Origin: an uncultured archaeon
Lineage (GTDB): Archaea > Thermoproteota > Nitrososphaeria > Nitrososphaerales > Gagatemarchaeaceae
Length of the DNA stretch: 64,000 nucleotides
Direction of reading: 5' to 3'
NCBI GenBank assembly: GCA_963817525.1
Contig: CAWFOU010000007.1
Span: 128,001-192,000, forward strand
In this document: piece by piece, positions 3,131-31,949 of the stretch
Position numbering within the stretch: position 1 is the first letter of the stretch
How the letters are laid out: every line of letters starts with the position of its first letter
Program-made: the position numbers and the translations under genes
Notes under the pieces: model-generated
What the model saw: the letters and a program-made list of their open reading frames with translations, nothing else
Told to the model about the DNA's origin: nothing
The model's database searches: none

Positions 3131-3243
3131 GGGCCCGTAGCTCAGATCCCGTAGAGGAGAGAAGCCAGGATAGAGCATCGGGCTTTTAACCCGAGGGTCA
3201 GGTCTCGGAACCCCCTAGGCGGGTTCGAATCCCGTCGGGCCCG
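3131..3243 (+). tRNA. tRNA-Lys(TTT) with two non-canonical introns (3146-3164 at position 15/16; 3200-3218 at position 48/49)
   Basis: Removing both 19-nt inserts gives GGGCCCG TA GCTC AGCCAGGATA GAGC A TCGGG CT TTT AA CCCGA GGGTC GCGGG TTCGAAT CCCGT CGGGCCC G, a complete cloverleaf; both inserts fold as BHB-like motifs. Confidence 0.92.
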
Positions 3244-3712
3244 CCTCCGCTCGAGTCCGAATCCCTTCCTTGCTCTTCGACTGCGGTTCGGTAGGCTTGG
3301 GCATACGGAATGGAGTACGCTCCTCGAATATAAGCGCCAACCCCTAGGCGTTGCAGACATCTGAAACGATTTGAATTCTATCTACCGAAGTAGAGGTAGA
3401 AGATAACTTCTACCTATCATGTAAAAGGGGACGGAGAAATGGCAAAAAATGCTAGGCTTGCTTGCCGAGAGCAGGATTGGAGCTTTATTTTACCGTCAAA
3501 TCCGTCCGGAGCGGCAAGGTCCAAGGTCAGGGTGTGGGCCCAGACATCTTGGTTCAAAAATTCCAACATCAGCACATGAGAAACGGGTTGGCAGTCCGAA
3601 ACAATTTTGCTCGCCCAGTCAATTAATCCTTCTCCAAAAGCCTAATGGCGCTCGTTTTATGACACCGTGAACCTCATTGTCAAGCCGACTACTCTTGACG
3701 TACGCCCGACCT

Positions 3713-5050
3713 ATGCGAATCCTCATCGATTCCTTCACTCTCGATAAGGCCCTCACGGCTGCCAATCCGATGGCGGCAATTCTACTGAAGTATAGTGACT
3801 CGAGTTTATTTGAATTCATTCGCTCTCCGGAGAGGACTACCGCATTACTCCTAGTTTCGATACCTGAATACAGCGTCAACACACAGGCACCACCAATGAT
3901 GACAACAATTCAGGTAGGAACGAGAAATAGGTCGTCGGAGTCCGCCTTCCCGTATCGTCAGGTCGACATGGATGTCGTTGGAAAATATGCATTCAGTTCG
4001 ACCGCGCTCTCACCTCGTCAAAAAGAGAGGATATTCCAAGTGTTTGTGCAGGCGGTTCTCAACGGCAGAGGTCCAGATCAGAGCTTATTTGTTACTGAAG
4101 ACAGAGTCCTCTTGAGAACTCGGCTGTGGTTTGAAGCGCACTTTCCCGGCAGGCGACTAAATATTGTCACAATCAATGAAGCCGCCGAGATGATGGATTT
4201 GTTCGCGAAATACAACCAAACATTCCTGCTCGCAAGCATAGCCACAACCAGGAAATGGCATCTGTATTGGTTATCGTTCAGAACCAAGGTACCATTTTTC
4301 AACGTTCCCTCCACTGCCGTTCAGGCCGCAGGTGCTTTGCGCTCCTCTAATTATCTGGACGCATTCTCATCGCGAATGATCTACTTGCTGATGTCAGTAG
4401 ATGAATTAGGATTCCAGCACTACTTGGGCGTGGATAACGACACGGAGGAAAATACGATGTACCATTTCAATTACGCGATTTCCCTTATTTCCAGCATCTT
4501 CGATAGCCTAGCCCTAGAAACCAAGGGCAAGCTGAGTCTTCATTTCAGGGACGAACACATTCCTTCTAGGACGTCGCTCTCAAAAGATGCAGGTGAAGAA
4601 TTCCTGAGAGCGATCGAGAGCAGAGACCCAATTCTGAGGACTCACATCCGAAACCATAGCGCGTTCATCAATCTCATAAGTCAACTTAGGCAATTAGCGA
4701 TTCACAGGGAAGGGTTTCTCAAGCTCGCATATGAAAAACGAGGGGCCCAAGGCGAAACCTGGAAATCAATCTTCATCCCCATTGACCAAGATATTTCAAA
4801 CAAGGTCAAGCATGCACTGGGGCGCAGACTCATTCCGTATGAGGAGATAACCGGTTCTGGCATTCACGAGATTGGTACTAGGCGCTATCTTCAACCATTC
4901 CATTTCGTTAAGGCCGCCGCCGGAAAGCTTAGCCAGTTTTCGTCACGGTACCTTGAATTGCTAGGCTACCCCAACTACATGACAACAGTCACACATCCCC
5001 AGTTCTCTACTGAAAGTAGATTGTACAGCCAGAATAAGCTTGGATTCTGA
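3713..5050 (+). CDS. Putative PIN-like + HEPN-like protein (possible defence effector)
   Basis: N-terminal ILIDS...FVTEDRVLL...IVTINEA resembles PIN; C-terminal helical region with LRQLAIH (RxxxxH). Confidence 0.55.
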   Translation: MRILIDSFTLDKALTAANPMAAILLKYSDSSLFEFIRSPERTTALLLVSIPEYSVNTQAPPMMTTIQVGTRNRSSESAFPYRQVDMDVVGKYAFSSTALSPRQKERIFQVFVQAVLNGRGPDQSLFVTEDRVLLRTRLWFEAHFPGRRLNIVTINEAAEMMDLFAKYNQTFLLASIATTRKWHLYWLSFRTKVPFFNVPSTAVQAAGALRSSNYLDAFSSRMIYLLMSVDELGFQHYLGVDNDTEENTMYHFNYAISLISSIFDSLALETKGKLSLHFRDEHIPSRTSLSKDAGEEFLRAIESRDPILRTHIRNHSAFINLISQLRQLAIHREGFLKLAYEKRGAQGETWKSIFIPIDQDISNKVKHALGRRLIPYEEITGSGIHEIGTRRYLQPFHFVKAAAGKLSQFSSRYLELLGYPNYMTTVTHPQFSTESRLYSQNKLGF

Positions 5051-5276
5051 CGAACCCGATTCGGTCATTCCAATGAGGCCTACGGGGCGGGGGAATCGTA
5101 CTTGATGCGGCTGAGGATCTTTTCGCGTTCCTCCTTTCTGTCGATTCCGAGCCGTTTGAGCGCTGCAAGGTGTCCAGCTCGCTCCTTCTTCGCGGCGAAT
5201 TCGACCTCGCCCCGTCAATCAGAAAGCCGCATTCAGTAAGTAAGCCTTTAATGCTGCAGAGAGCCAATTCGGAGAG

Positions 5277-6440
5277 TTGACGCTAGTAGTCTGCGTGCAG
5301 TGCAGAGAGGGCATGGTTGTTGCAACAGATAGCAGAGCTACTTACGAAGGCGCTCCGCTCATGAGAGAGACAACCGGAAAAATCTTCCCTATTGATAATA
5401 GATTCTGCATCGCCACAATCGGCTGGACTGGGGGTGCTGACAGAGTTGTTGACGAAATAAAGGTACAATTCGAAAAGGCCAGGATCGACACGACCAGAGC
5501 TTTCCTCGACTTATGTGAAGATACCTCGTTCAGCTATCTGAAGCGATACAAGGAGCGACTGGATGTTTCAGATGAAAATGACAAGGATGACATGAGCTTC
5601 TACTTGGTCTGTGCCTCTTCGAGCGGGATATTTACCGTCGAGGATGGCATATCAGAGCAGACCTACGATTACGGATGTTTTGGCAGCAGCGAGAATTACG
5701 GAGAATACATTCTGAAGCAACTTTACAAAAGGAATTCTTCACTCAAGGAGGGAACCAACTGGGCGGTCTATGCGATTAAACAAGCCATGAGTTTGGACCC
5801 AAATGTAGGTGGACCTGTATACGTTGCTCACCTCACGAAGAACGGAATAAAGATCCTCAACCAAGAGGAAGTACTGAAAGTCCAACAACAAATATCCAGT
5901 CAATCTCCCGAGTTTCAGAGAGGCCTCTTTGATCTGGTGGATAGAATAGTCCAAGCACGAAGAGAAATCAACCAACTCACCATGAAGGCGCACAAACTCC
6001 CGTTGTTCGATCAACAAGAGGCGCCCATATGGACGCTTGCGCATCAAGTTGTGACGGAAGAAGACTTCACGAATGGGATTCTTGCCCTGGGCGTTCTCGT
6101 CGATGAAATGACTGCGCCGGGTGTAGCGAGTCAAGAAAGGAGCCCTGGAACTCAGTCAATAGGCGGACTTGAGAAGTGGCTGCAGGAACAGCACGAGTCA
6201 AAGGAGGAGATTGAGAAAATAACAAAACCTCTGAGGCAGATACGCAGTCTACGAAACAAGAAACTTCCAGTTCATCCAGATGACGCCGAATTCATATCCG
6301 TGGTGGTGAACTGGGGCCTATCTTTTCCCCCCGACTGGGCCAGTTTGCATGTCATGGCGGTCGGCAAATATCTCTCATTCCTTGGAAACATGCTAGCGTT
6401 GCTCTCAAAAGAGAAAGGCAAAGCCAAAGCGCTCCGTTGA
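5277..6440 (+). CDS. Proteasome beta-type Ntn peptidase fused to a ~170-aa helical (HEPN-like) C-terminal domain
   Basis: (M)T1-LVV...ATD17SR19...K34IF, FGSS, DPNVGG motifs; C-terminal PLRQIRSLRNKKLPVH. Confidence 0.75.
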   Translation: MTLVVCVQCREGMVVATDSRATYEGAPLMRETTGKIFPIDNRFCIATIGWTGGADRVVDEIKVQFEKARIDTTRAFLDLCEDTSFSYLKRYKERLDVSDENDKDDMSFYLVCASSSGIFTVEDGISEQTYDYGCFGSSENYGEYILKQLYKRNSSLKEGTNWAVYAIKQAMSLDPNVGGPVYVAHLTKNGIKILNQEEVLKVQQQISSQSPEFQRGLFDLVDRIVQARREINQLTMKAHKLPLFDQQEAPIWTLAHQVVTEEDFTNGILALGVLVDEMTAPGVASQERSPGTQSIGGLEKWLQEQHESKEEIEKITKPLRQIRSLRNKKLPVHPDDAEFISVVVNWGLSFPPDWASLHVMAVGKYLSFLGNMLALLSKEKGKAKALR

Positions 6441-6451
6441 CTGTCGAGTTG

Positions 6452-7448
6452 TCATCTGTTCGTCGGCAACGCCAAGGTCGGCACGGCCCACGCGCCGAGC
6501 CAGTTGGAAATCTCCTGAGCGTCAACTTGAGAGGCGGTTGACAAGTCTACGCGGTAGTGGGTCTGTGAAACGCCGGGAGGCTCCGCCATCGTAAAGTGAG
6601 GGGCGTCCGCAGCTCTGTACCACGCTAGGGACTTCTCGGCTTCAGTTGCGTCAAACCCAGGGCCGGGCTCATTCAATAACTCCATACCTGCCTGACGTAC
6701 GGCTCTCTCCAGCTTGATGAATTCTTCGGTCCCTGACAAATCTGCCCTAGCGCTGATAATCAACTCGCGAAGACTGAGTCCGGCATCTTCTTTTCGGAGG
6801 AGGAGAGATGCTATCATGATTTCTTCCCCTTCAAGTGGATAGATTTGTCGGTGAGCGAAATGATGTATCCGAACAGGCCCCAAAGCTGTCTTTACTTCGA
6901 CTCTTTTGGCAAAAGTCGAGAAGTCGAACTTGCGTGTCGTCTCACTATGCCAAAAAGGCGCCCAGAAGGCAAATCCTTTCACGAGACTCATCATAAAGAG
7001 TTCTCCCCACAGCCCCTGCCTTTCGCCTTGAAGGTCGGAGGATTGCTCCACTGAGAACAGTCTTGACATCGAGCCAAAGAAAGAGGTCAACATGGCAAGG
7101 TCTACTCTCCCTTCCTCATGACGGCTGACAAACGCATCTATGAGCACAAGGAAGGCTTCGACATCTCGGTCGTCAGCGGTCTCGCAGCGAAGAGCGTGAA
7201 AGCGCCCGGTGGTCACGGGACCCCCTATCGTTGCAACACTATACTCCTGTCCAACTTGGAGAGACACGTGAGAGGTACGCAAGGGCGGCTCGAGAACCCT
7301 TTCATCAGCTCGAATGAAGAGGCATGGCTTTAGTTGAGTCCACGCCAAGGTAAGTGTCGTCGTGACCAGGCAGTGCCATTACAGTGAAGGTGTGGCTAGA
7401 AGGGTTTGCCCGAAGCTCTTTGTAGATTTCCGCTGTCCGCGCTGACAT
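6452..7448 (-). pseudogene. PD-(D/E)XK motif protein (DUF4420-like), frameshifted near 7330
   Basis: RQGLWGELF, KFDF...VEVKT...IHHF motifs; the N-terminal part (MSARTAEIYKEL...LGVDSTK) is in another frame and joins if one A of an AAA run is removed. Confidence 0.7.
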
Positions 7449-7588
7449 GGCTATGGGCCACGCACTACGAAGCCGAGGTCGAACCTTGGGTCTCCCTCCG
7501 GAATGTAGAGTGCCAGAGCAGTCGTCAGTCTCGGCATCACAGGAGTTGTATAAACTTATATAGACAGCTAGCTCGCAGTTAAAAAGCC

Positions 7589-7885
7589 ATGACGCTTCAG
7601 ACCGCACGCCACAGCCGCATCTCGATCAAGAGAGTGTTGCACGAGCCGAAGATATCGACCATGATGATGATAGAGAAGGCTATACTCGACCATCAGGATT
7701 ATCTGATGAGGACGGAGCTCTGGAACTCCCTCCCGAAGAAGGTCCAGTATCAGACCTTCCAGAGGGCGCTCCAGTACCTCGAGAGCCACGGCACCATCGC
7801 CATCGATGATGAGGGAAAGATCTTCTACACCGGGGTCAACAACCAAAAGCTCAGGAAGCTGCTCGCCACGAGCGTCCCCGCCTAG
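7589..7885 (+). CDS. Small winged-helix-like protein (paralog of 15555-15854)
   Basis: HEPKISTMMMIEKAI...LWNSLPKKVQYQTFQRALQYLE; TATA-like TATAAACTTATATA upstream. Confidence 0.75.
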   Translation: MTLQTARHSRISIKRVLHEPKISTMMMIEKAILDHQDYLMRTELWNSLPKKVQYQTFQRALQYLESHGTIAIDDEGKIFYTGVNNQKLRKLLATSVPA

Positions 7886-7889
7886 CGAA

Positions 7890-8216
7890 TCAATAACCGA
7901 ACCTCTCTTCGTAGCTCTTGTGTTCCAGGGCTTCGAGCACAAGCACGGAAACCTCGTCACCATCCCGAGCGAGCGTGTAGATCGCCCTGAAGCCCTCGGG
8001 GAGATGGTAGCGGAACAGGTTGTTCACGCCGAACCTTCTGATGTAGTGCTTGGGAATCAGGCTCTTTCGGATGCTCTCTCCAGCAAACATGTTTTCCAGA
8101 AGGACCAACTTCATGTTGTCAAGCCACTTCCGCTCCGGGTCGTTCTGCGGGAGACTGTCGAGGTGAGCCTGGAGCCTTTCTTCAAACTTGACTGATTTCG
8201 GGGCTCTGGCGATTGC
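7890..8216 (-). CDS. RelE/ParE-like toxin-fold protein; 5' end possibly disrupted
   Basis: GESIRKSLIPKHYIRRFGVNNLFRYHLPEGFRAIYTL...HKSYEERFGY; frame stays open upstream of ATG 8114 to ~8216 without a canonical start. Confidence 0.6.
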   Translation of the reverse strand, partial: AIARAPKSVKFEERLQAHLDSLPQNDPERKWLDNMKLVLLENMFAGESIRKSLIPKHYIRRFGVNNLFRYHLPEGFRAIYTLARDGDEVSVLVLEALEHKSYEERFGY

Positions 8217-8378
8217 TCAGCTCACCGATTCGAAAAACACCATCGGCATAGTAAAACGTTCTGAGCCGATCCAGATAGAAGGCAGAGGAAGCGGTAAAAC
8301 TAGGAAGGCCCGGAAGCGTCGTCGCGCTCCAGGCGGGAGAGGAGAGCCAAGAACCTATCAAGGACCTCGGTGCTTGAC

Positions 8379-9496
8379 CTACTGCCAAGTGTCTGTGAAT
8401 GTGGTTGATCCCGTTATCGAGCCGGCCGCTTCGAGTGTGCTGCTTTGATAGAGATCATAAAGGCCTACATTGTAGCTTGATCCGATGTAGGTGTCATGCA
8501 TCCCTGATGGATCTTCGTCCCAGCCAGTCAAGGTGGGGGAGTTTGCTGACCAAAGCACCAGGTTGTGATTCGAGTCTGGAGCTTCGAATATTCCTTCGGT
8601 TTGGACGAACGTTGACTGTGAAGAGCCACCATTGGCAAGGCTAACAGTGAGTGAGTAGCTCCAACTTCCTATTATCCACTGGAAGGTAGGGCTTTGGGTC
8701 GTCCCGAGGAACGAAAACACGTACTCCTCAGAAGTTCCGTTTATTGAGGTCGGGTAAGTACTAAGGTACTTTTCAGTGGAGTTCGAGCCATGGAAATCGG
8801 CATAGAATAGAAGCCATGTCATGGTATGATGACCCGTGTAACTTCCACCACCCGAGCATCCTGCCTCATTGTAGCACACATTCATCCCATTCTGAAGCAA
8901 TTCCCGGTCCCTGAATTACTGCCGCTCAGGCCGGTCCAAAAGCCTGTTGCGCAGCCCGACGCTCCACCATAGCAACTTCCGTCCCAGGTCAAGTCGCCGT
9001 CATACACCCCACTTGTCTGCAGCGTGTAGCTCGCGCTAGAACATACTAGGGCTGCTCCGGATGCCGTGAAGGTACAATTGCCAGATGCTCCTCCAGACCA
9101 ATTGCCGCTGGAAGCGGTAGGCGTATCTTTGAAGTCACCAGAGGTATTGGCCGGATTCAGGATGACCGTGGTCGCATTCATCTTGGCAACGGTAGCGGAC
9201 AATCCCGAATAGGGGTCGTTCAGAAGCTTATCGTAGGCAGTACGGTTCATCGACATCTGACCGTTACCAATGTACTGGATGGTGTAGGTTCCAGTCGGAT
9301 CCTGGATTATTCCTGTGTCGAGAGGGGGAACTATTGACGGCTCTGACACGCGTGGCGCGCTAGTGGAGCTAGGCGTGACGGCCATCGCCTGAATAGCCAT
9401 TACGTTTAGCGAGAGCAGAGACAAGAGGCCGATACTGAGAGCGATTGGGTAAGACTGTCTTGCGCCAATCTTGTGTTTCATTAGGCTTCGTAACAC
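8379..9496 (-). pseudogene. Secreted peptidase G1 (eqolisin/A4)-like glutamic peptidase, frameshifted near 8903
   Basis: Signal peptide, SSGNWSG and FWTGLSG in ORF 8882-9496; LLQNG and TEGIFEAP (putative catalytic Q/E) in ORF 8379-8900. Confidence 0.6.
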
Positions 9497-9570
9497 TCAA
9501 ACATTGGATATGAGAGTTTATCAGAGGACTCTGACTAAAGTATTTATAATAGAAACGCCGCTTTTTCCAA

Positions 9571-10140
9571 ATGTCTCGACTAGGCTCCATCCTAGTTGCT
9601 CTTATCGGCTTCGCAATTCTTAGCACAGTATTTGCAAGTATCCATCTCCTGACACTATCAGGTAACCGCCTCCAAGACTCGCTTCCCGCCGGAAGTTCGA
9701 CTCCGCAATCTTTGCTTTTCCTTCTGCCAGCAGTTCGGTTCCTTTCAAACAATTCATTTGTACTTGCGCCTACAAGTTGGCTCCTTGTCGGAGGTGTATG
9801 GATGTGGCGCGGGCGCCTCAAGTCCAGGTGGGAAGAACTTGGATTTGACTCGGATGTATTCCAGCTTTTCGTGAAGATGAAGGGCGGAAGAACCAAGCTG
9901 AAAGTGATGAATGCTCTTGGAAAGCCCAAAGATCGCTACCAATTGGCAAAAGAGCTCGGCTTGGACTGGAGAGCCGTTGACCAACACCTCGTAGCCCTGG
10001 CTCGTTGTGGGTTGGTTAGCAATGATGTAGTATATGGCAAGGTACGCATGTACGCACTGACATCGTCAGGAACACGACTTCTCAGGCTGCTGGAAGACAT
10101 GAATGCAGAGACAGATAAGATACCCGCCCACATCGACTAA
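9571..10140 (+). CDS. Membrane-anchored ArsR-like winged-helix regulator
   Basis: Two N-terminal hydrophobic segments, then MKGGRTKLKVM...RYQLAKELGLDWRAVDQHL...YALTSSG. Confidence 0.8.
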   Translation: MSRLGSILVALIGFAILSTVFASIHLLTLSGNRLQDSLPAGSSTPQSLLFLLPAVRFLSNNSFVLAPTSWLLVGGVWMWRGRLKSRWEELGFDSDVFQLFVKMKGGRTKLKVMNALGKPKDRYQLAKELGLDWRAVDQHLVALARCGLVSNDVVYGKVRMYALTSSGTRLLRLLEDMNAETDKIPAHID

Positions 10141-10510
10141 CTGAACTGAAGCGGTCCCTCTTGGGAATATGAGAGCCAAACTCTACACTACGCGCCCCGC
10201 CTCTTCGGGCTTGGTCGTGAAGCAGCCGTATTCCAGCGACGTCAGCATGTTGTAGAAGGGAACCCTCCCCTGCCCGTAAAGAGCATCCCGAACCCCTTGT
10301 CTACGCGCTCGATGAAGGCCTTCTCCTGGTCTTTCTTTCGACTTCATGACGGGGTCGCGTATATGGCTCATCAGCCATAACAAACCTAAAGAGAAGAAAG
10401 GAAGCTATGCGCGATAGCCCACACCAGCACCGGCAGGGGTGAAGAGTTCCTCGATGCGCTGCGGGGACCGGCCGAGCGTCCCGATCCGGGCGCGCCAGGC
10501 GACATTTGAG

Positions 10511-10780
10511 ATGAAATATCGAAGCAGGGTCGCGATCGCTTCCAACATCCTGCAGGTGGCTCGAGCGGGGAACGCGACCAAGACCAGGCTGATGTACGGG
10601 TCGTTCCTCTCCTTCGCCCAAATCAACGAGTACCTGGACTTCCTGCAGCTTAACGGACTCATCGTCCTGAGCGGAGAGACCCGCGTATACGCCCTCACCG
10701 AGAAGGGCCTGCGCTTCCTTCGCATCTATGACGAGCTGAGCGCTTTGGTCCCGTTCGACGGGCCCGTCCCGCCCGTCTGA
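10511..10780 (+). CDS. Winged-helix regulator (HTH_45/DUF4364-like)
   Basis: MKYRSRVAIASNIL...TKTRLMYGSFLSFAQINEYL...YALTEKG. Confidence 0.85.
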   Translation: MKYRSRVAIASNILQVARAGNATKTRLMYGSFLSFAQINEYLDFLQLNGLIVLSGETRVYALTEKGLRFLRIYDELSALVPFDGPVPPV

Positions 10781-11389
10781 GCCCTTAATGTGGCGTCGCT
10801 GATGACGCGACTACCTGCTTCCGTCGGGCTTCACAGCTTGTCGATGGTCGAGGAAGGTATCGACCCCTTCTGGCCTATGGCCTCGACGATCTAGTTCACT
10901 TTACCTCTGCCCCACGTCATCCTCTATTTGATGTCCCCAGAACAGCGGAGAAAAGGAGAGGGTAGGCGACCTTGAAGGCTCGTCGAGGACAACCCGGCAA
11001 CTTACACGAGTGATTCCGGAAATCTGATTGCCGACCAGCAGTTCGATCGGAGAGTCGAGAGCGGGGGGAGGACCAAGTATCAGTCACTGCAAGAGAGAGG
11101 AAGTCTGGCAAAAGCGGTCCAAAAAAAACAATAAGGCAGATAAGAAAGATATCCGCATTCATGTGAGGGCTCCAGGATGGCTCTTCGCCTTCCTGCTGAT
11201 GCGGAGGGGTGGGCACGGCTCGTTATTAGCCTAGCGACTCGACCGGGGTAGCAGCTCGCCACGCTCCGCTTTTACCGCATGCATTCGATAAGCGCTCCAC
11301 CTATGGTGGGCGTATTCTGACGATTCAACGGAAGCGGAGCATGCCACACTCAACGGGCAAAGCTCTCGGAGCTTGCGCTCCGCGCTCAG

Positions 11390-20517: not shown

Positions 20518-20518
20518 C

Positions 20519-23851: not shown

Positions 23852-23939
23852 TCTGTCAGCTTAAGGGACATGAAAGCCCTCCTGATTACAGTTGCATAAA
23901 TGCTACGATGAGAAATTCCATGTCCCTTGAGCTAACAGA
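23852..23939. repeat. 88-bp element with 24-bp imperfect terminal inverted repeats (MITE-like or hairpin)
   Basis: TCTGTCAGCTTAAGGGACATGAAA ... TTCCATGTCCCTTGAGCTAACAGA (3 mismatches). Confidence 0.65.
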
Positions 23940-23985
23940 GTGCTTCTTGCATATCGTTAAATATCATATAGCCAAGATTTAACCA

Positions 23986-24225: not shown

Positions 24226-24226
24226 C

Positions 24227-24583
24227 ATGCGCTTCCTTGTGGACGAGAGCACAGGAAGGAAGATCTGCGAACTCCTTGGCGCGGCTGGTCACGACACGAC
24301 GTTCGTCGGCGACTCGATGCCAGGCTCCGCGGACGAAGCCGTCCTCGCCTTGGCGGATAGCGAAAGGAGAATCTTAATCACTGATGACAAGGATTTTGGC
24401 GAGCTCATTTTCAGACTCGATAGGCCCACGACAGGGGTCATTCTGTTAAGGCTCTCGACGGCAAACTCTCGGAGACGAGTAAGAATTCTTCTTGATGTCA
24501 TCAAGAGCTTGCAGCTCGAGGGAAGTTTCACGACGGTCACGGACAACGGAATCAAGACACGAAGGTTGCGCTCCAGAGGGTAG
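24227..24583 (+). CDS. DUF5615 PIN-like toxin
   Basis: MRFLVDES...GHD...DEAVL...RILITDDKDFGEL. Confidence 0.92.
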   Translation: MRFLVDESTGRKICELLGAAGHDTTFVGDSMPGSADEAVLALADSERRILITDDKDFGELIFRLDRPTTGVILLRLSTANSRRRVRILLDVIKSLQLEGSFTTVTDNGIKTRRLRSRG

Positions 24584-24626
24584 GCGGCAAGCCCTTCGTC
24601 GAAGATTCTATCTTCCAACTTGACCG

Positions 24627-24676
24627 GGAATCCACTTTGAGAACCCGTTCAGGGGCGGGTCCCGTCGGGCCCGCCT
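24627..24676 (+). repeat. att-like site, type B (conserved ~35-bp leader + tRNA 3' end)
   Basis: GGAATCCACTTTGAGAACCCGTTCAGGGGCGGG TCCCGTCGGGCCCGCCT; last 17 bp identical to 3230-3246; followed by a type-A palindrome at 24678-24705. Confidence 0.85.
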
Positions 24677-25085
24677 TAGATTCGCTTGAGATGTTAAGCG
24701 AATCCAACTAAACTTGCTTAGAGTCCCAGGCGAAATCCATTTAGCGTAAGTACTTCCATCGCCCTCGGGTTCGAAGCCAAGGGATCGATTCTGCCGGCCC
24801 GTCGATTCCTGCGAGCAAAATTCAAAGGATCAACTTGATTCTACGGGCATTCGATGCTAAGAAGGATTCGCATAGATTCCCCCCAAGTGTTCTTGCTTCG
24901 ATGGCCCACGGGTTTCTCGTCGTCCGGCTCGACTTCCTGAGGAGGGAAATTACATTCGCCCTCTGATCGAGAGGCGGCCCTCTCTGCCGCTTGGCGTGCA
25001 TCTACGACCCTAATTTCAAGTTCGCCTTCAGCGTTGAACAGACACAACGGCTTTATGACGCGGCTCTTCGATTAATCGAGAAGTA

Positions 25086-27041
25086 ATGTCCCAGGGCGTA
25101 CGGAGACTTGCGGCTATAATGTTCACGGACATGGTGGGCTTCACAGCTCTGGGCCAACGGAATGAACAACTTTCCATTGCCCTGGTTGACGAACAAAGGA
25201 AACTGCTGAGGCCAATCTTCACCAGACATAACGGTAGAGAGGTCAAGACTATGGGAGATGCCTTCCTCGTTGAATTTCCAAGCGCACTGGATGCCGTGAG
25301 GTGTGGGTACGACATCCAAAGAGCCACCAGAGAATTCAATGTCTCGTTACCAAGCGAGAAGAGGGTACACCTGAGAGTCGGGGTTCACCTTGGGGACGTT
25401 GTGGAGTCTCAGGGGGACATTTCGGGCGATGCGGTAAACTTGGCATCGCGAATAGAGCCCTTGGCAGAAGATGATGGTGTGTGCATTACCCGTCAGGTCT
25501 ACGACCACGTCAAGAATAAGTTCGAGCTCCCATTGGCAAGCCTCGGGAGCAAATCCCTAAGGAGCATCGCCGAGCCGTTGGAAGTTTACAAGATGATAAT
25601 GCCGTGGGAAGAACGGAATGCCTCACAATCAGAACACTTCGACAGGAAAAGAATTGCAATCTTACCCTTTGCTAACATAAGCCAGGGTGACAACGACGAG
25701 TACTTCGCAGACGGCATGACAGAGGAGCTGATCTCCACACTATCTAGAATCGGAGGTCTGAAAGTCATTTCCCGCACTTCCGTGATGCGATACAAGGCCT
25801 CGGGCAAGAGCGTGAGCGAAATTGCCAAGGAGCTAGGAGTAGGGACGATCCTGGAGGGAAGCGTCAGGATGGCTGGCGGCCACCTGAGGGTCTCGGCCGA
25901 GCTCATAGATGCGGGAAGAGACGAGCATCTCTGGTCACAAGACTACGACAGGGATTTGGAAGACGTGTTCAAGATTCAGACGGAGATCGCCCAGAGAGTT
26001 GCTGAGGCACTGAGAATAGAGCTTCTTTCGGTCGAAAGAGAGGACATTGAACGCCGGGTGACCGAAAGCCCTCAGGCTCATAAGCTCTATCTGAGGGGGC
26101 GTCACTATTGGAACGAAAGGACCAAGGATAGCGTCGATAAAGCTGTAAAATACTTCGAGGAGGCCATCAAGCTGGATTCCAAATACGCGCTCGTCTATGC
26201 CGGGCTTGCTCGTTGCTACATCCTCTACGGTGCATGGGGCTTCATGAGACCGAATGATTCATTTCCCAAGGCCAAAAGGTACGCAATAAAGTCCATAGAG
26301 ATCGACCCGAGGTTGGCTGAGCCGCATACCATCTTTGCCGACGTCCTCAATGATTACGAAGGGCGCTGGGTGGAGTCGGAGCTAGAATACAGGCGGGCAT
26401 TGGAGCTCAATCCTAGCTACGCTACGGCACACATGTGGTATGGGCTCTTGTTAGTATTCTTGACAAGGTTTGACGAGGCTCGCGACCATATCAGGCTAGC
26501 CATCGAGCTTGATCCGCTCACCCATGTCGGTGCATTGAATCTTGCTGGAGTGTCACTCTATGAGGGAAGACCGCGAGACGCCGTAGAACAGATTGAAAAT
26601 GCAATTGAGGGAGACCCCGAATTCGCCCCCAACCACAATGCTCTCGCTTGGGCATACTGCCTTGACTCAAGAACCGACGAAGGGATCAGCGAGATGAGGA
26701 AGGCATTGGCAATGTCTGGCGAACCTATTGATAAAGCGGACTTGGCCTGCCTACTAGGCTTCTCCGGTCGAACGGAGGAGGCCCGCAGTATACTCAAAGA
26801 AATCAAAGAGACTTCGAAGGTTACCTATGTCTCCAAGATGAAGATTGCGCAAGTCTTGTTTGCCTTGGGAAATTACGATGAGGCATTCAAGCTCCTCGAA
26901 GAGGCGAGGGAAGATCATTCGCTCTTCACCCAACACGGGAGCTATCTCCTTGACATGAGATTGCTTCCTTTGTTCGCTCCGGTGCGAGAGGACAGAAGGT
27001 GGCAGACGTTTGTAGCAACCTTAAAGATCCCAGAAGCCTAG
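25086..27041 (+). CDS. Class III adenylate/guanylate cyclase-like + TolB-like + TPR protein
   Basis: RRLAAIMFTDMVGFT, KTMGDAFL, GDAVNLASRIE, IAILPFANIS...YFADGMTEELI, TPR repeats. Confidence 0.92.
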   Translation: MSQGVRRLAAIMFTDMVGFTALGQRNEQLSIALVDEQRKLLRPIFTRHNGREVKTMGDAFLVEFPSALDAVRCGYDIQRATREFNVSLPSEKRVHLRVGVHLGDVVESQGDISGDAVNLASRIEPLAEDDGVCITRQVYDHVKNKFELPLASLGSKSLRSIAEPLEVYKMIMPWEERNASQSEHFDRKRIAILPFANISQGDNDEYFADGMTEELISTLSRIGGLKVISRTSVMRYKASGKSVSEIAKELGVGTILEGSVRMAGGHLRVSAELIDAGRDEHLWSQDYDRDLEDVFKIQTEIAQRVAEALRIELLSVEREDIERRVTESPQAHKLYLRGRHYWNERTKDSVDKAVKYFEEAIKLDSKYALVYAGLARCYILYGAWGFMRPNDSFPKAKRYAIKSIEIDPRLAEPHTIFADVLNDYEGRWVESELEYRRALELNPSYATAHMWYGLLLVFLTRFDEARDHIRLAIELDPLTHVGALNLAGVSLYEGRPRDAVEQIENAIEGDPEFAPNHNALAWAYCLDSRTDEGISEMRKALAMSGEPIDKADLACLLGFSGRTEEARSILKEIKETSKVTYVSKMKIAQVLFALGNYDEAFKLLEEAREDHSLFTQHGSYLLDMRLLPLFAPVREDRRWQTFVATLKIPEA

Positions 27042-27079
27042 TTTTTTCGGCTCTCGGTCTCGAGACCTGTCCTGCAGCA

Positions 27080-27118
27080 GGGTTCGCTTGGAACATTAGG
27101 CAATCCCATCGGACCCGC
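27080..27118 (+). repeat. att-like site, type A (degenerate)
   Basis: GGGTTCGCTTG GAACAT TAGGCAATCC CATCGGACCCGC. Confidence 0.7.
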
Positions 27119-27489
27119 TAGCTTATCCAAACACGCTTCACCTCGGTGAAGTGCGGGTCATCTGTGACACAAGAGACGCGCAGACTCTTCGACGTTGCCA
27201 TGATCAACGAATCAGCCATGGGAACTCGCAGTCTATGGCTTATCCTAGCTCCCTCCTCCGCTATCCCGGCGCTCACATCGACTATGGTATACTCGTTTGC
27301 AATCGTGCGGGTGCGCAGCTCGGCAACCGTCTTGTCATCGTGTTCAATGGTCTGTTTGTATATCTCGTAAATGCTGATTGATGACGCGAACGGAGTCTTT
27401 GCCTTCTCGAAGATCGCCTTGAGCTTCCTGGTTATCTCCGCGTCCTTTGAAGTGAAGACGGCCCAGAAATACCTGGTCTCGAAGAGCAT
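27118..27489 (-). CDS. vapC: VapC-type PIN toxin
   Basis: MLFETRYF...SIYEIY...MADSLIMAT...VTDDPHF. Confidence 0.88.
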   Translation of the reverse strand: MLFETRYFWAVFTSKDAEITRKLKAIFEKAKTPFASSISIYEIYKQTIEHDDKTVAELRTRTIANEYTIVDVSAGIAEEGARISHRLRVPMADSLIMATSKSLRVSCVTDDPHFTEVKRVWIS

Positions 27490-27492
27490 GAG

Positions 27493-27717
27493 TCACCCCT
27501 CAGATGAGCGCATCTCGTCAAGCAGTCGGAAGGACTCCTCGGTGGACAGCTTGCTCTTTCCTGCAAGGTCGAAGATTGATGGAATTTTTGTGAGTACTAC
27601 CTTGTCCCCTTCCGTGTCGACCATTAGCCTTGTTCCCTCCTGTATTCCGAGTTTCTTTCTTATGGATATAGGTATCGTCGTCTGCCCTCGCCTGGTGACA
27701 ACAACCTCTTGAGCCAT
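27493..27717 (-). CDS. vapB: AbrB/MazE-type antitoxin (VapB)
   Basis: VTRRGQTTIPISIRKKLGIQEG; directly upstream of the PIN gene. Confidence 0.88.
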   Translation of the reverse strand: MAQEVVVTRRGQTTIPISIRKKLGIQEGTRLMVDTEGDKVVLTKIPSIFDLAGKSKLSTEESFRLLDEMRSSEG

Positions 27718-27840
27718 GAGAGTGGCACGAATTCCTACTATAAAGCAATTCCTACCGCCGTAGGATTCCTATCTGCCCCGTCAGTCAGCTTAGGCGGGCT
27801 GGCGCATAGGTTCCTAAGCGGGCTTCTCCGATGCGACCAA

Positions 27841-27889
27841 GGGAATCCGCTTTCAGAACCTGTTCAGGGGCGGACCCCGTCAGGCCCGC
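27841..27889 (+). repeat. att-like site, type B
   Basis: GGGAATCCGCTTTCAGAACCTGTTCAGGGGCGGACCCCGTCAGGCCCGC. Confidence 0.85.
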
Positions 27890-28018
27890 TAATGATAAGC
27901 TCAATTTGAACTCTTTTTGAGTATGGCGAACATATTTGTGCCATTCCAGCGATTGTCGAAGCTAATCCGTCTGAATCGAACCCCTAAATATCGTCACCCA
28001 CTACTTACGCCTCGCGTC

Positions 28019-28414
28019 TTGAACGACAAGAAGGGAACGGGACCTGGCCAAGTCAGCGAGTCTGAACTTGCTGATCGAATATTCTCGTTCGACGACGCCA
28101 TCATGTTCTGCGTGATTATGAGCTCCGACGGGGACGTTCACGTGATACGGTCGCAGCCGGGAAGCGGGAGCCTGGTACGGAATAAGGGCGACGTCGAAAT
28201 GCTAGCCAAGCGGTGGGCTATCGTCAGGGGGATAGACGACACGGCAGACAAGTTGTTGGGACAGTCGCGTAGCGCAATAATCCTTCGCGACAAGATTACA
28301 TTGATGAGCATAAACGCGCCCGGCGGAAGGTGCGCGTTCGTCGGGGCACGCCCGGACGTCGATATTCGAAAGGTAAGAGAGATGGAAGAGGCAGTCGCCC
28401 TACTCAGCCCATAA
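28019..28414 (+). CDS. Small roadblock/profilin-like protein (DUF6659-like)
   Basis: ADRIFSFDDAIMFCVIMSSDG...LLGQSRSAIILRDKITLMSI pattern; start TTG 28019 inferred. Confidence 0.55.
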   Translation: MNDKKGTGPGQVSESELADRIFSFDDAIMFCVIMSSDGDVHVIRSQPGSGSLVRNKGDVEMLAKRWAIVRGIDDTADKLLGQSRSAIILRDKITLMSINAPGGRCAFVGARPDVDIRKVREMEEAVALLSP

Positions 28415-28463
28415 CTGGCGAGGCTGGAGGTCAGCTCCCAGGGGGGGGCGCGGCGTCGCGCTT

Positions 28464-28506
28464 GAATCCGTTGAAAAACCGTTCGGAGGCGGCCCCGTAG
28501 GTCAGC
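28464..28506 (+). repeat. att-like site, type B (degenerate)
   Basis: GAATCCGTTGAAAAACCGTTCGGAGGCGGCCCCGTAGGTCAGC. Confidence 0.55.
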
Positions 28507-28577
28507 TGCCCTTCGCGAGGGTTGGATTCGAACTTCGAGTGCACGGCAACCCTATCGCGCAAGAGTCCTCTTGAGGA

Positions 28578-29438
28578 CTATAGGATATTCAGGTCGCTAG
28601 CTGCGTAATAAGAAGGAACCAACGGGCGAAATCCGAGACTTCTGATTTTTTCAGTGTTAAGGAGGCCGCTCCACGGGTTTATCAAAGGAGTCGCCGGGTC
28701 TGCCAGCTTCGCGGTCTGACCCGCCAGGCGGATGACCTCTTGTAGAGTAATCGGCGAGTCATCGGCGACGTTGCATATCTCGCCCCCCATGGCAGAGACG
28801 CCCAATGCCAGCTTCACGGCTTGCGCAACATCCAAATGGTGCAAAAGATGCAACCTATACGCCGGATGACGGGCCCACCGCTCAAAGAGCGGAATCGATT
28901 CTGGTAGATGCGGGTCACCGGCGCCGTAAACGAAGCTGAAGCGCAGGATGCTTACGTCAAGTTGTCTCGCCGCGTGCATGCCAAGCAAGAGTTTCTCCGA
29001 AGCCACTTTGCTCGAGGGATAGGCAGCCGTTGGACTGACGTGGTCGCTTTCTATGGCAGGCGCGGCGTCATTGCTGTAGACCGTGCTTGTGCTTGAAAAG
29101 ACAAAGCGAACCTCTGGGTTGATTTGGGAAGCCGCTCCGGCTATGTTTTTCGTGCCGGTCTCGTTTATGCTTTTGATCTTATCAGCGTCTTCGCTGCGAA
29201 GACTGCGAAAGAAAGCCGCAAGGTGCACGATTGCATCGACCCCGACAAGGGCTTCTTGCAGGCTCTCAGGCTGCATGATGTCGCCGACGAAGGTCTCTGC
29301 CCCTTTGGCTTTGAGCTTCCCCGCGGTTTCGTCATCGGTTCTTCGGACAAGTATTCGTACGGAATGACCGCCGGTGAGCAGAGACGGAACTAATCTGCTT
29401 CCTACTTTTCCAGTTGATCCCGTTACCAGGACGTTCAT
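28578..29438 (-). CDS. NAD-dependent epimerase/dehydratase family protein
   Basis: VLVTGSTGKVG, IVHLAA, YPSSK. Confidence 0.9.
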   Translation of the reverse strand: MNVLVTGSTGKVGSRLVPSLLTGGHSVRILVRRTDDETAGKLKAKGAETFVGDIMQPESLQEALVGVDAIVHLAAFFRSLRSEDADKIKSINETGTKNIAGAASQINPEVRFVFSSTSTVYSNDAAPAIESDHVSPTAAYPSSKVASEKLLLGMHAARQLDVSILRFSFVYGAGDPHLPESIPLFERWARHPAYRLHLLHHLDVAQAVKLALGVSAMGGEICNVADDSPITLQEVIRLAGQTAKLADPATPLINPWSGLLNTEKIRSLGFRPLVPSYYAASDLNIL

Positions 29439-29540
29439 TTTCTAGACTGCGAGGTAGTCGACGCGCCTATAAGAATGCTTTGTATAAAGTAAATTGGTAT
29501 AAAGTAATTAGATATAGAGGCGGGCAACCAACCGCCCCGC

Positions 29541-29984
29541 GTGGAAGCCAGTCCGAACGCCGGATCTCTTGGCCACTGGGTGAAGATGATAAACCATGAC
29601 GCGACCATCAAGGGGAACCGCCTCCTCAAACCATTCGGTCTGACTCAGAGCGCCTGGTACGTCCTCTATCAGGTCAACCAAGCGGAACGGATCTCCCAGA
29701 AGAAGCTTCAGGGGACCCTAAGAATAGAGTCCGGAAGCATGGCGATGATCGTGGATAGTCTCGTCCGAAAAGGGTGGCTCGAAAGAACCTCCAGCGAGAA
29801 AGATCGCCGAGCCAATTATCTCAAGCTCACCCCCAAGGGCGCCGCTCGGTGGAAGACAGTTCCGGACGTAGCATCTGTCTTACGAAAGGAAATGATGCGG
29901 GGCATCTCGGAGGCGGAGGAGAAAGCCGGCATAGCGGTACTGAAGAAGTGTTGGGCTAACCTGGAGAAGGCGACCGCTGTCTAA
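29541..29984 (+). CDS. MarR-family regulator
   Basis: GLTQSAWYVL...VDSLVRKGWLER...DRRANYLKLTPKG; divergent from the epimerase. Confidence 0.9.
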   Translation: MEASPNAGSLGHWVKMINHDATIKGNRLLKPFGLTQSAWYVLYQVNQAERISQKKLQGTLRIESGSMAMIVDSLVRKGWLERTSSEKDRRANYLKLTPKGAARWKTVPDVASVLRKEMMRGISEAEEKAGIAVLKKCWANLEKATAV

Positions 29985-30011
29985 CAGAAAGAGTCCGCGA
30001 ATCAATTCATC

Positions 30012-30051
30012 GGATCCGCCTAGAGGATTAAACGCATCCCGTGGGGCCCGC
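30012..30051 (+). repeat. att-like site, type A
   Basis: GGATCCGCCTA GAGGAT TAAACGCATCC CGTGGGGCCCGC. Confidence 0.75.
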
Positions 30052-30095
30052 TCCCATTACGGTTAATACACAGACCCCACCCAGTCACGGGCGTC

Positions 30096-30926
30096 TTGCC
30101 CACGATTAAGACGAAAGATGGGACTCAGATTTACTACAAGGACTGGGGGACGGGACAGCCTGTCGTCTTCAGCCACGGTTGGCCGCTCAGCGCCGACGCG
30201 TGGGAAGACCAGATGCTCTTCCTGGGCTCGCGCGGATATCGTTGCATAGCGCACGACCGCCGCGGTCATGGGCGCTCCGACCAGCCCTGGAACGGCAACG
30301 ACATGGACACCTACGCTGACGACCTTGCCGACCTTGTCAAGCATCTCGACCTCAAGGGCGCCGTTCACGTTGGTCACTCGACCGGGGGCGGCGAGGTCGC
30401 GCGCTACATTGGGCGGCATGGGACGAAGCGCGTCGCCAAGGCCGTTCTCATCGGGGCAGTGCCACCCATAATGGTGAAGACGCCGTCCAACCCTGGCGGC
30501 CTGCCTATCGAGACGTTCGACCAGATCCGCGCGGGAGTCCTGGCAGACCGCTCGCAGTTCTGGAAGGACCTGTCGATGCCGTTCTACGGCGCCAATCGCC
30601 CCAACTCCAAGGTGTCGCAAGGCCTGCGAGACTCGTTCTGGCTCCAGGGGATGTGGGCAAGCCACAAGGCGGTCTACGACTGCATCAAGCAGTTCTCCGA
30701 GACGGATTTCACCGAAGACCTCAAGAAGATCGACGTGCCGACGCTAGTCCTCCACGGGGACGACGACCAGATAGTGCCCATTGCGGACTCGGCGTTGCTG
30801 ACAGCCAAGATAGTTAGGAAGGCCACTCTGAAGGTGATCCCCGGAGCGCCCCACGGCATGTGCTCGACCCTCAAGGACACCATCAACGCAGAGCTGCTGG
30901 CGTTCCTGAAGCAAGGCCTTTCATGA
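30096..30926 (+). CDS. cpo: Non-heme chloroperoxidase / perhydrolase (alpha/beta hydrolase)
   Basis: [50 protein letters not shown]. Confidence 0.92.
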
Positions 30927-31016
30927 GCTCCCGAGACCGCTGAATCCCGAGCGGCTACGTTCCGATCCTTGGCAGGGCCGCCTCCTTATTATTATCAAGA
31001 CCTATCTCGGACAATC

Positions 31017-31868
31017 ATGACAGACTCGACGCAGAGCTTCTGGCCCAACGATGCACGGCTCGTCATCTCGGTTTCCATGCAGTTTGAAACCGGATCTCAA
31101 CCCGACCGTGGAGCCGCGAGCCCCTTTCCGCCTCTTGATCCCAAGTACCCTGACCTGCCCGCGCAAAAGTGGTACGACTATGGCTTCAAGGAAGGCATCC
31201 CCAGGCTCCTCGACCTGTGGGACCGGGTCGGCATCAAGGTGACGTCTCACATGGTCGGCCGAGCCGTCGAAAGACACCCTGAACTTGCGAAGGAGATCGT
31301 CGATCGAGGCCACGAGGCGGCCGGCCACGGTCAGACCTGGGAGCCGCAGTACTCCATGACCTCCGAGCAGGAGCGCGCCGGGTATCAGGCCAGCGTCGAC
31401 ACGATCCGGAGGGTGACGGGCACACGCCCGGTCGGTTTCAACGCGTTCTGGCTTCGCGGCACTACGAGCACCCTGGGAATCCTCCAAGACCTGGGCTTCA
31501 TCTACCACATCGATGACGTCAGCCGAGACGAGCCCTTCACGGTGACCGTGAAGGGGAAGCCCTTCGCCGTCGTGCCCTACACGATTCGCAACAATGACAT
31601 CGTGCGTTTTGATTCGCCGGCGATGACGAACGCCGCTTACCTGCAGGACGTTAAGGATGATTTTGATGTCCTCTACGCAGAGGCGGCCTCCCGCCGCCGG
31701 ATGATGTCGATCAGCACGCACGACCGGATCTCCGGCATCCCAGGACGAGTGAAAGTGCTGGAGGAGTTCATCAGGTATGCCCAAGGACGTGACGACGTCG
31801 TGTTCATGCGGAAGGACGAGATCGCAAGGTGGATCTTGTCGGCTTCCGACGCGCCTCGCGAAGAGTGA
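31017..31868 (+). CDS. Polysaccharide deacetylase family (PuuE-like) protein
   Basis: FWPNDARLVISVSMQFE, YGFKEGIPRLLDL, GHEAAGHG, MMSISTHDRISG. Confidence 0.88.
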   Translation: MTDSTQSFWPNDARLVISVSMQFETGSQPDRGAASPFPPLDPKYPDLPAQKWYDYGFKEGIPRLLDLWDRVGIKVTSHMVGRAVERHPELAKEIVDRGHEAAGHGQTWEPQYSMTSEQERAGYQASVDTIRRVTGTRPVGFNAFWLRGTTSTLGILQDLGFIYHIDDVSRDEPFTVTVKGKPFAVVPYTIRNNDIVRFDSPAMTNAAYLQDVKDDFDVLYAEAASRRRMMSISTHDRISGIPGRVKVLEEFIRYAQGRDDVVFMRKDEIARWILSASDAPREE

Positions 31869-31901
31869 GCCGACCGGCCACCCATTGAGCGAGAGATTTT
31901 C

Positions 31902-31949
31902 GGAGTCCATTTGCAGAACCCGTTAAGGGGCAGACCCCGTCGGTCCCGC
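31902..31949 (+). repeat. att-like site, type B
   Basis: GGAGTCCATTTGCAGAACCCGTTAAGGGGCAGACCCCGTCGGTCCCGC. Confidence 0.8.

Follow-up and report, generated by a model that had tools for sequence, protein, structure and literature searches.

Is a row of small gene modules behind a tRNA gene the residue of larger elements, or a set of cassettes that recombine one by one? The question is raised by a stretch of 64,000 nucleotides (the window; G000:C7:128001–192000) from the genome of an uncultured archaeon of the family Gagatemarchaeaceae (G000; 2.82 Mb, 15 contigs, ~60% G+C), in which the 3′ end of a tRNA-Lys gene recurs along an array of eight modules. Integrons are the textbook case of a system dedicated to storing and reshuffling single genes; where no integron is involved, tRNA loci are usually described as gaining genes through whole elements that arrive and then decay. 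We consider it fairly probable that modules 2–8 are integrase-less cassettes moved by site-specific recombination, and that the locus is a tRNA-anchored array of integrative modules.

The tRNA-Lys gene and the copies of its 3′ end

The anchor of the array is a tRNA-Lys(UUU) gene (3131–3245, + strand) that, read by eye, has two non-canonical introns, one in the D-loop and one at the junction of the variable loop and the T-arm. Because of these introns, neither ARAGORN nor Rfam detects a tRNA at 3131–3245 in the unspliced window. When two segments were removed by program and ARAGORN was run on 2646 boundary variants of the stretch, tRNA-Lys(ttt) was returned in 951, with one other call. Thus, with the introns removed, 3131–3245 has a cloverleaf and an anticodon, and it is kept in relatives, many same-genus genomes having 79–90% DNA matches to it. 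More generally, many G000 tRNAs carry non-canonical introns and are overlooked or miscalled by standard tools: on the whole genome ARAGORN reported only 33 tRNA genes, several with implausible 300–1700-nt ‘introns’. In such intron-rich tRNAs, the anchors of arrays are overlooked by standard tools.

The last 16 nt of the tRNA (the core; 3230–3245, TCCCGTCGGGCCCGCC) are repeated along the array. With up to three mismatches allowed, this 16-mer was found 10 times on the two strands of the window against 2.47 expected, a count reached in none of 100 shuffles. Nine of the 10 matches are on the + strand, eight of which are the tRNA end itself and seven copies, ending at 18152, 23802, 24675, 27119, 27890, 30052 and 31950. 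An eighth copy (28493–28507, CCCCGTAGGTCAGCT) falls outside these matches, with ~10 of 16 positions kept in a by-eye alignment; it was accepted as a decayed site because a degenerate yet recognisable type A arm (see below) precedes it. A sequence-only reading of this DNA had placed eight same-strand copies between the genes, and both points held: the positions agree within 1 base, with 28507 as the decayed one, and all copies are intergenic, except that the copy at 27104–27119 overlaps the vapC stop codon by 2 nt (ORF 27118–27489, − strand).

Public data bear on whether the array is real. Seven soil-metagenome runs were available, as contigs only, and four of them (X1, X2, X3 and X5; Logan contigs) were aligned to 16500–36000. 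Their contigs span the sites at 23802, 24675, 27119, 27890 together with 28507, 30052 and 31950; since they come from separate runs, the array cannot be put down to an assembly artefact in this one record. Small indels separate the window from these contigs (GA inserted after 19129 in 4/4 runs; one nucleotide absent at each of 28441 and 35085, in three runs apiece), and may be assembly errors or strain variants. As a further observation on the assembly, the short contigs C13, C11 and C4 repeat parts of C1 (C13:4411/5481 equals C1:543091/544161; C11:1849 equals C1:289865), which agrees with the stated 8.75% contamination/redundancy of G000.

The modules

The copies divide the region behind the tRNA as follows.

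3246–18152: module 1, a 14.9-kb integrative element (Pfam/PHROGs)
16746–18079, − strand: integrase of module 1, of a divergent tyrosine-recombinase family (tblastn E 1.75e-20, match 16758–18016)
18137–18152, + strand: distal core (attR) of module 1, TACCGTCGGGCCCGCT, with no A or B arm; integrase promoter region upstream
18153–23802: module 2, 5.65 kb (exactly 5650 bp), five or six − strand genes of unknown function, one a beta-propeller; type B site 23761–23802
23803–24675: module 3, 873 bp, DUF433 and DUF5615 (PIN-like), + strand; type A site 24626–24675, exact core
24676–27119: module 4, 2444 bp, adenylate/guanylate cyclase-TPR, + strand; type B site 27079–27119
27120–27890: module 5, 771 bp, vapC (PIN) and a MazE/AbrB-type antitoxin, − strand; type A site 27841–27890
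27891–28507: module 6, ~617 bp, a 165-aa gene of unknown function, + strand; degenerate type A site 28461–28507
28508–30052: module 7, ~1545 bp, NAD-dependent epimerase (− strand) and MarR (+ strand); type B site 30010–30052
30053–31950: module 8, 1898 bp, alpha/beta hydrolase and polysaccharide deacetylase, + strand; type A site 31901–31950
31951–35878: possible older module(s), SDR, CorA, MsrB and AAA_33 kinase (Pfam); ends at a weak, decayed type A-like site 35829–35878, not counted as a site

Modules 2–8 span 0.6–5.7 kb, their cargo genes lie on both strands, and they hold no integrase or integrase fragment by Pfam or by tblastn with eight integrases from the genome, the other window matches of which had E ≥ 0.27. 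The only integrase of the window is therefore that of module 1 (16758–18016), in line with the sequence-only reading, whose view of discrete non-autonomous units at tRNA-derived sites also describes these integrase-less, core-bounded modules well. As for contents, Pfam agreed with that reading on DUF433/DUF5615, the cyclase-TPR, a PIN toxin with a MazE-type antitoxin, the epimerase with MarR and the hydrolase with the deacetylase; of the ‘five surface proteins’ only one beta-propeller match was recovered, and the ‘roadblock-like’ gene, which encodes 165 aa, had no match. The cyclase-TPR gene of module 4 (25086–27041) belongs to a large paralogous family with many 64–72% DNA matches in G000 and the genus.

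Codon usage is atypical over ~3.2–35 kb of the window and native-like from ~36 kb. Where it becomes native-like, 35829–35878 shows a weak, decayed type A-like site (nhmmer E 0.44).

Sites consist of a conserved arm and a tRNA-derived core

What the sequence-only reading had overlooked is that the tRNA copy is only part of the site. Each site consists of a conserved non-tRNA arm of ~35 nt and a 16–20-nt copy of the tRNA 3′ end, ~50 bp in all. Two kinds of arm occur in the window. The type A arm (GAATCCACTTTGAGAACCCGTTCAGGGGCGGG) closes modules 3, 5, 6 and 8. The type B arm closes modules 2, 4 and 7; its sequence, GGATTCGCTTAA..TTAAGCGAATCC, forms an imperfect palindrome that extends into the start of the core, and the right half of this palindrome equals the tRNA's T-loop/T-stem junction. 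An alignment of 18 type A sites, drawn from six genomes, has a mean column identity of 82%, with at least five different cores attached to them, and the arms are conserved beside unrelated cargo. This arm, which does not come from the tRNA, is the main evidence that the sites are functional.

The GGATTCG box and its complement are 3- to 5-fold enriched within 80 nt of 31 sites relative to random places. A hairpin like that of attC was considered for the sites and is unsupported: RNAalifold gave −3.9 kcal/mol with no compensatory pairs for the 18 type A sites and no consensus pairs for 16 type B and Gln-type B sites. Type B, with the imperfect palindrome seen by eye, might nevertheless fold. 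Separately, a scan of viral_contigs with a 19-nt arm pattern returned five loci, all of them chance matches with no core, no integrase and no further part of the arm.

Modules keep their boundaries and change order between species

The content and order of the array were compared with those of relatives, most informatively with G009. There, the tRNA-Lys gene is followed by a 2.4-kb type B module, the window's integrase element, then modules 6 and 5 and the beginning of module 8. The integrase element is 84.6–97% identical to that of the window over the shared parts (the left end and 12722–18177) and ends in the same distal core, with the same attR sequence TACCGTCGGGCCCGCT at the same place; modules 6, 5 and 8 are 82–85% identical to those of G000, and native genes of the two genomes 69–74%. 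Thus modules stand in the order 6-5-8 directly behind the integrase element in G009, versus 5-6-7-8 behind modules 2–4 in G000, and deletions alone cannot convert one order into the other.

The breakpoints fall at the sites. At all four junctions examined between the two genomes, homology stops exactly after ...GCCCGCT, and each module retains its own left end and its own arm type though its neighbours differ. Module 5 has the same left end and type A arm in G009 behind a different neighbour, module 6 lies directly behind the attR of the integrase element, and the left end of module 8 is common to both genomes. The units that the sequence-only reading had drawn from a single sequence are in this way re-ordered between species, with breakpoints at the cores.

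Recurrence of cargo in a second array and transfer between species can also be seen. The cargo of module 7 has a 75–81% identical copy in the tRNA-Gln array described below (C1:788945–790104), where it is bounded by a Gln-type arm and core on the right and by an embedded ...CTGCCGGGCCCGCC core on the left. Furthermore, 11,399 bp carrying an intact integrase (C1:1153421–1154746) are 100.000% identical between G000 (C1:1153346–1164744) and G012:C5 (L039, 9925–21323), two species of the genus whose native genes are 76–84% identical, which means that an integrase element moved between species very recently. The identical stretch reaches precisely to the attR core, past which G000 and G012 have different small modules, so that, to judge from the two sequences, the element moved without the neighbouring modules. 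Both C1 of G000 and the L039 contig end inside this element, which probably breaks assemblies.

Towards its distal side the array is less clear-cut. In G001, G010 and G022, orthologues of the window genes at 43554–46921 lie 2–7 kb from tRNA-Lys, compared with ~33 kb in G009 and ~40–42 kb in G000. The array may include older, eroded parts, with no sharp border between cassettes and chromosome.

Arrays at other tRNA genes and across the family

When tRNA 3′ ends were located across G000 by a structural search and orphan copies of each were then sought, arrays emerged at other tRNAs. The longest follows tRNA-Gln(CTG) (C1:773832–792684, L027), with 11 same-strand copies of the 3′ end in 19 kb, spaced 0.7–3.5 kb apart. 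Its arms follow the same plan with a Gln-specific sequence (CAAATTCCnCCTAAAAGCCCCTAAACAGGTGCAGC, or a GGATTCG-hairpin variant), and its cargo comprises two vapBC pairs and a further PIN gene, HxlR+TetR+SDR, a P-type ATPase, an ABC transporter, MarR regulators and glyoxalase+EVE+MarR. As the sequence-only reading had noted for the window, toxin–antitoxin (TA) pairs are frequent cargo in arrays. No integrase or remnant was found in the 11 Gln modules (Q1–Q11) by Pfam and tblastn. A third array, on C8, has three exact copies of the 3′ end of tRNA-Arg(CCT), and other G000 tRNAs have single copies. By tRNA, the orphan copies number four for Lys at ≤2 mismatches (seven at ≤3), six for Gln (11 at ≤3, within 19 kb) and three, all exact, for Arg(CCT). 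In these three arrays the copies are on the same strand as, and downstream of, their own tRNA, and no opposite-strand copy lies within 60 kb. Genome-wide, the Lys core has 164 matches at ≤3 mismatches.

Had modules been added solely at the tRNA, as in the sequential capture that the sequence-only reading envisaged, core decay would be expected to rise with rank. It does not in the Gln array, where the mismatches by rank are 3, 3, 2, 2, 3, 3, 3, 1, 2, 2 and 1; in the Lys array they are 2, 1, 0, 3, 3, ~6, 2 and 3. There is no gradient in either array, and insertion solely at the tRNA is thus not supported.

The site family extends to relatives. With a model of the type A site scanned over 61 related genomes, sites were found in 27; among these are 24 of the 36 further genomes of the family and 2 of the 24 that represent other families of the order. 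A single genome has as many as 13 sites, mostly in same-strand clusters. At 8 of 14 tRNA-Lys loci in relatives a further same-strand copy lies downstream at ≤2 mismatches. G018 and G012 have two further tRNA-anchored type A arrays, and in that of G018 (L036) the tRNA shares only CGGGCCCGC with the core of the modules, an acceptor segment that is common to several tRNAs.

Some arrays include integrase genes or their traces. The left end of a 5.8-kb element at tRNA-Ile holds an integrase remnant, and the right end of this element is a type B arm; integrase remnants lie in some arrays of G000 (C7:988391–987753, C7:84174–84641 and C7:1046021–1046320). At C7:984289–988391 (L030), an intron-bearing tRNA with an integrase element is followed by an integrase remnant and then by Lys-core type A modules on the strand opposite to the window array, a layout that could reflect exchange or inversion between arrays.

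A repeat unrelated to these sites was also observed. At G000:C7:561909–574171 (L070), ..CCCGGCGGAGGCGCAATGAACCC.. occurs in ~10 same-strand copies in 12 kb, the first of them starting 8 nt beyond the 3′ end of the gene for 23S rRNA (Rfam LSU, L070 16180–19846, − strand); the units hold no integrase, and their cargo is accessory genes (MFS-Usp, DUF929, RibD_C). In 5 of 6 loci of other species, vapBC homologues have this repeat on both sides, and two copies lie inside one module of the tRNA-Gln array.

Module 1 and its integrase

Module 1 is an ordinary element that integrates at the tRNA 3′ end and duplicates it: it leaves an intact tRNA with a direct repeat of the 3′ end, has its integrase beside one att, and is found elsewhere as a unit. 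Its cargo includes a phrog_33637-like ORF of 457 aa, a proteasome-like protein, a DUF4420 nuclease-like protein, a winged helix-turn-helix (wHTH) protein and a SnoaL protein. The integrase lies at the tRNA-distal end, its start 58 bp from the core at 18137–18152. Relative to two relatives, the window copy is broken by a 2-nt insertion (an extra AC) between ~17585 and 17615; no difference is listed at the frameshift between the window and the contigs of the public runs.

In single-sequence searches against Pfam, NCBIfam and the PDB this integrase family had no match. A profile of eight members, on the other hand, aligned with six Pfam-positive integrases of G000 (hhalign 99.68%, E 1.1e-25, 361 columns) and matched the archaeal XerC-like structure PDB 4a8e_A (E 2.4e-4), with GLRVSDL and WRPYVLRRYFDT falling on the Arg-I and HxLR ((H/Y)xxR) boxes. 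By eye, MGHTGDIEHVYT would be the His/Tyr box of the family. By these profile alignments, the integrase at 16746–18079 and its paralogues belong to the tyrosine recombinase superfamily. Relatives occur in metagenome-assembled genomes of Nitrososphaerota or Nitrososphaerales, one being Candidatus Gagatemarchaeum stordalenia. Besides the window copy, G000 has three apparently intact members and four remnants, several of which directly adjoin cores or type B arms. The closest paralogue, on C1 and within the 11,399-bp stretch that is identical in G012, is 77–79% identical to the window integrase and has the same layout; the modules behind it end in B, A and B sites.

Two other candidates were examined and set aside. 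The 457-aa ORF beside the tRNA (3677–5050) is ruled out as an integrase, as it has no Pfam, PDB or NCBIfam match and resembles only phrog_33637, of unknown function. Nor is there a shared gene at the head of the arrays, the first ORFs after tRNA-Lys, tRNA-Gln, tRNA-Arg and the 23S rRNA being unrelated (E > 4). A fragment of a different, Pfam-positive integrase (C7:393647–393943; residues 30–123, 72% identity) ends exactly at a Lys-like core, as expected for an SSV-type integrase gene split by its own integration.

How the modules might move

In the mechanism we propose, an excised module would be a circle carrying arm and core as an attP-like site, and the circle would be inserted into any core of an array, be it the tRNA itself or the site of another module. 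The enzyme would be an integrase of the family of module 1, acting in trans and encoded either by a resident element or by an intact paralogue at another locus of the genome; run backwards between two flanking cores, this reaction would excise a module. Since several tRNAs share CGGGCCCGC, modules could also land behind other tRNAs. Recombination of the small modules is probably catalysed in trans, and may be going on today; that the integrase could act in this way, as the sequence-only reading had proposed, is suggested by co-location and by the intact integrases of the same family elsewhere in the genome.

Several observations weigh against cassettes moved by site-specific recombination. No excision or circle joints were found in the contigs of the four runs over 16500–36000; at a depth of only ~3–5, and in contigs, which drop rare variants, such absence is uninformative on excision. 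(One loose end in X3, at 23765/23802, corresponds to a type B site of the C8 array that matches the arm.) The integrase of the window element is broken in both copies examined, G000 and G009, at different places, and no integrase lies near the Gln and Arg(CCT) arrays, so that enzyme and sites are linked by association. The distal cores of the window are degenerate (2–6 differences) and fossil-like. In 10 of 10 other relatives examined, the hydrolase of module 8 has no adjacent site; it adds no support for mobility, and some cargo is an ordinary gene found across the genus and not foreign DNA. Likewise, none of the vapBC homologues in six other genomes (0/6) is flanked by a site of the arm-plus-core type, and the orthologue of 46976–49591, which is conserved flank in G000, sits between two type A sites in G012. 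Finally, a conserved 50-bp site could also be used by homologous recombination, giving the same breakpoints.

Some of these points are what one would expect if elements accumulated passively and decayed, the modules being leftovers of autonomous elements after loss of integrase and backbone, the sites fossils and the small modules immobile. The degenerate distal cores, the integrase remnants in some G000 arrays and the tRNA-Ile element, which shows that a type B arm can be the native end of an integrase element, all fit such a history, and formation of integrase-less units by deletion is described in bacteria in the text available for streptococci (PMC5704250). Decay has difficulty, however, with small modules that have no integrase fragment in any of the cases examined (Lys array, seven; Gln array, 11), and modules of 0.6–3.5 kb, 11 of them in one array, would require many independent deletions that each spared the site. 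Furthermore, arms that keep 82% mean column identity across genera whose genes are ~70% identical do not look like fossils, and modules 5 and 6 exchange order between G000 and G009 with exact boundaries. We regard passive decay as an unlikely account of the array.

The re-ordering itself might be explained by RadA-dependent homologous recombination between the 50-bp sites, for example once foreign array DNA has been taken up, without any site-specific reaction dedicated to the small modules. Breakpoints inside a shared stretch of 16–50 bp are expected under either mechanism, and the lack of joints or circles in the low-depth contigs of the four runs, as well as of an integrase in or beside the Gln and Arg(CCT) arrays, would suit it. 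On the other hand, the sites always have a single orientation relative to the tRNA, A and B arms with only ~16 nt in common are mixed within one array, and the modules in G018 share only the acceptor segment with the tRNA of their array, a very short stretch for homologous exchange to act on. Moreover, the same core is used by the integrase element, which ends exactly there. To this explanation we give a slim chance. That the repeats are no recombination sites at all, being processing or termination signals, small-RNA genes, chance GC-rich matches or an assembly artefact, is largely refuted and highly improbable: the core is indeed GC-rich and has its many genome-wide matches, but the orientation of the repeats tracks the tRNA and not the genes, which occupy both strands, the cores match the local tRNA in three arrays of quite different sequence, module boundaries in the second species coincide with cores, contigs of other runs bridge the sites, and the shuffles never reached the observed core count. 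Movement of integrase-less cassettes by site-specific recombination is hence the reading that we prefer for the window.

Beyond this locus, we tentatively suggest that Gagatemarchaeaceae-like archaea possess a general gene-cassette system convergent with integrons, in which arm-plus-core sites derived from the 3′ ends of stable-RNA genes (several tRNAs, perhaps also 23S rRNA) might allow a divergent tyrosine recombinase acting in trans to excise, insert and reshuffle cassettes of 1–3 genes. The several arrays that result in each genome would acquire ordinary chromosomal genes and pass them between species.

Comparison with known systems

The sequence-only reading had called the array functionally an integron, and this holds in part. 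Like integrons, the arrays consist of many small cassettes of 1–3 genes, each with one site of ~50 bp at its distal end, and their order varies between relatives; arrays without a neighbouring integrase exist in both (CALIN-like), and TA pairs are frequent cargo. The differences concern the remaining hallmarks. The integrase here is not IntI: PF00589 finds seven loci in the genome and none in the window, in a search that was not aimed at an IntI-specific domain, and the window integrase, which PF00589 does not recognise, lies at the far end of a 15-kb element and not at the array head. There is no attI beside an integrase gene at the head, the anchor being a tRNA gene. Instead of folded attC sites, the arrays have a tRNA 3′ end plus a sequence-conserved arm with no supported fold. 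In place of promoterless, co-oriented cassettes behind a promoter, genes lie on both strands, often with their own regulators (several modules carry MarR, TetR or HxlR regulators), and one genome holds several arrays that differ in their core. The system is thus integron-like in logic but not an integron. In the report on archaeal integrons by Ghaly et al. (bioRxiv 10.1101/2022.02.06.479319), the term ‘tRNA’ does not occur in the text.

Closer parallels come from islands at stable-RNA genes, which we compare here on the portions of the reports available. The Dehalococcoides ssrA islands (McMurdie et al. 2011, PMC3146451) are arranged in tandem downstream of a stable-RNA gene, with 20-bp repeats of its 3′ end and, upstream of the repeat, a conserved motif that does not come from the RNA gene; 15 of 31 are without an integration module, and the authors suggest that these are possibly cis-mobilizable. 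As described there, these islands are bacterial, larger and served by a serine recombinase module, with a single anchor gene per genome, whereas in arrays of the window type integrase-less modules, mostly of 0.6–3.5 kb, far outnumber integrase elements, several tRNAs serve as anchors, and the recombinase is of the tyrosine type.

The cis-mobilizable elements of streptococci (CIMEs), as presented in the accessible part of PMC5704250, are att-flanked, lack integration genes, stand in tandem with integrase elements at a tRNA 3′ end, and depend for mobilisation on the integrase of the neighbour. Modules 2–8 and Q1–Q11 resemble them in having cores on both sides and no recombinase. In that account CIMEs are single decayed derivatives of integrative and conjugative or integrative and mobilizable elements (ICE/IME), moved in cis with a conjugative element; in the arrays here there are up to 11 modules in a row, no conjugation genes were seen, and arm families are common to unrelated cargo. 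On the question of a CIME-like origin, the type B arm that is the native right end of the tRNA-Ile element fits derivation by deletion, yet the 100%-identical element appears to have moved alone and modules change order independently.

In Prochlorococcus, repeated tRNA integration of tycheposons (bioRxiv 10.1101/2020.12.28.424599) is described as pushing older elements into an island, with partial tRNAs scattered in it and cargo in plug-in cassettes. Tycheposons differ in that they encode an integrase themselves, often together with replication genes, and partial tRNAs elsewhere in the islands are read as remnants; in the text available, neither a conserved arm nor a regular integrase-less array is described. 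Within the same phylum as our genome, tRNA genes, including intron-bearing ones, are reported as the main targets of thaumarchaeal elements, with a median att of 17 bp, and tandem integration at one site is known in archaea (Krupovic et al. 2019, PMC6563490; PMC8371274). What these sources, in the parts available, present are integrase-bearing ‘cryptic integrated elements’, different from small integrase-less arrays that share arms. In the literature as available, we found no account of archaeal modules that are small, arm-bearing and integrase-less and stand in regular arrays, and supplementary tables (for example Table S2 of PMC6563490, or those of the tycheposon and ssrA papers) may list such units; in PMC10640624 the words ‘integrase’ and ‘mobile’ do not occur. 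The nearest described systems are bacterial, and what we see here is accretion at tRNA anchors that involves non-autonomous elements and has developed into a cassette system resembling an integron.

Implications

A little-studied, uncultured family of soil archaea has regular arrays of up to 11 integrase-less modules, several per genome. If the modules are moved in trans, this would be an independent invention of cassette-based genome plasticity from the ordinary parts of tRNA integration, and it would offer a concrete route for the frequent gene gain reported in these archaea. Such arrays would also be a testable intermediate between a ‘decayed island’ and an ‘integron’, bearing on the origin of attC-type sites and cassettes. 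The sites themselves are a practical marker for the flexible gene pool of these genomes.

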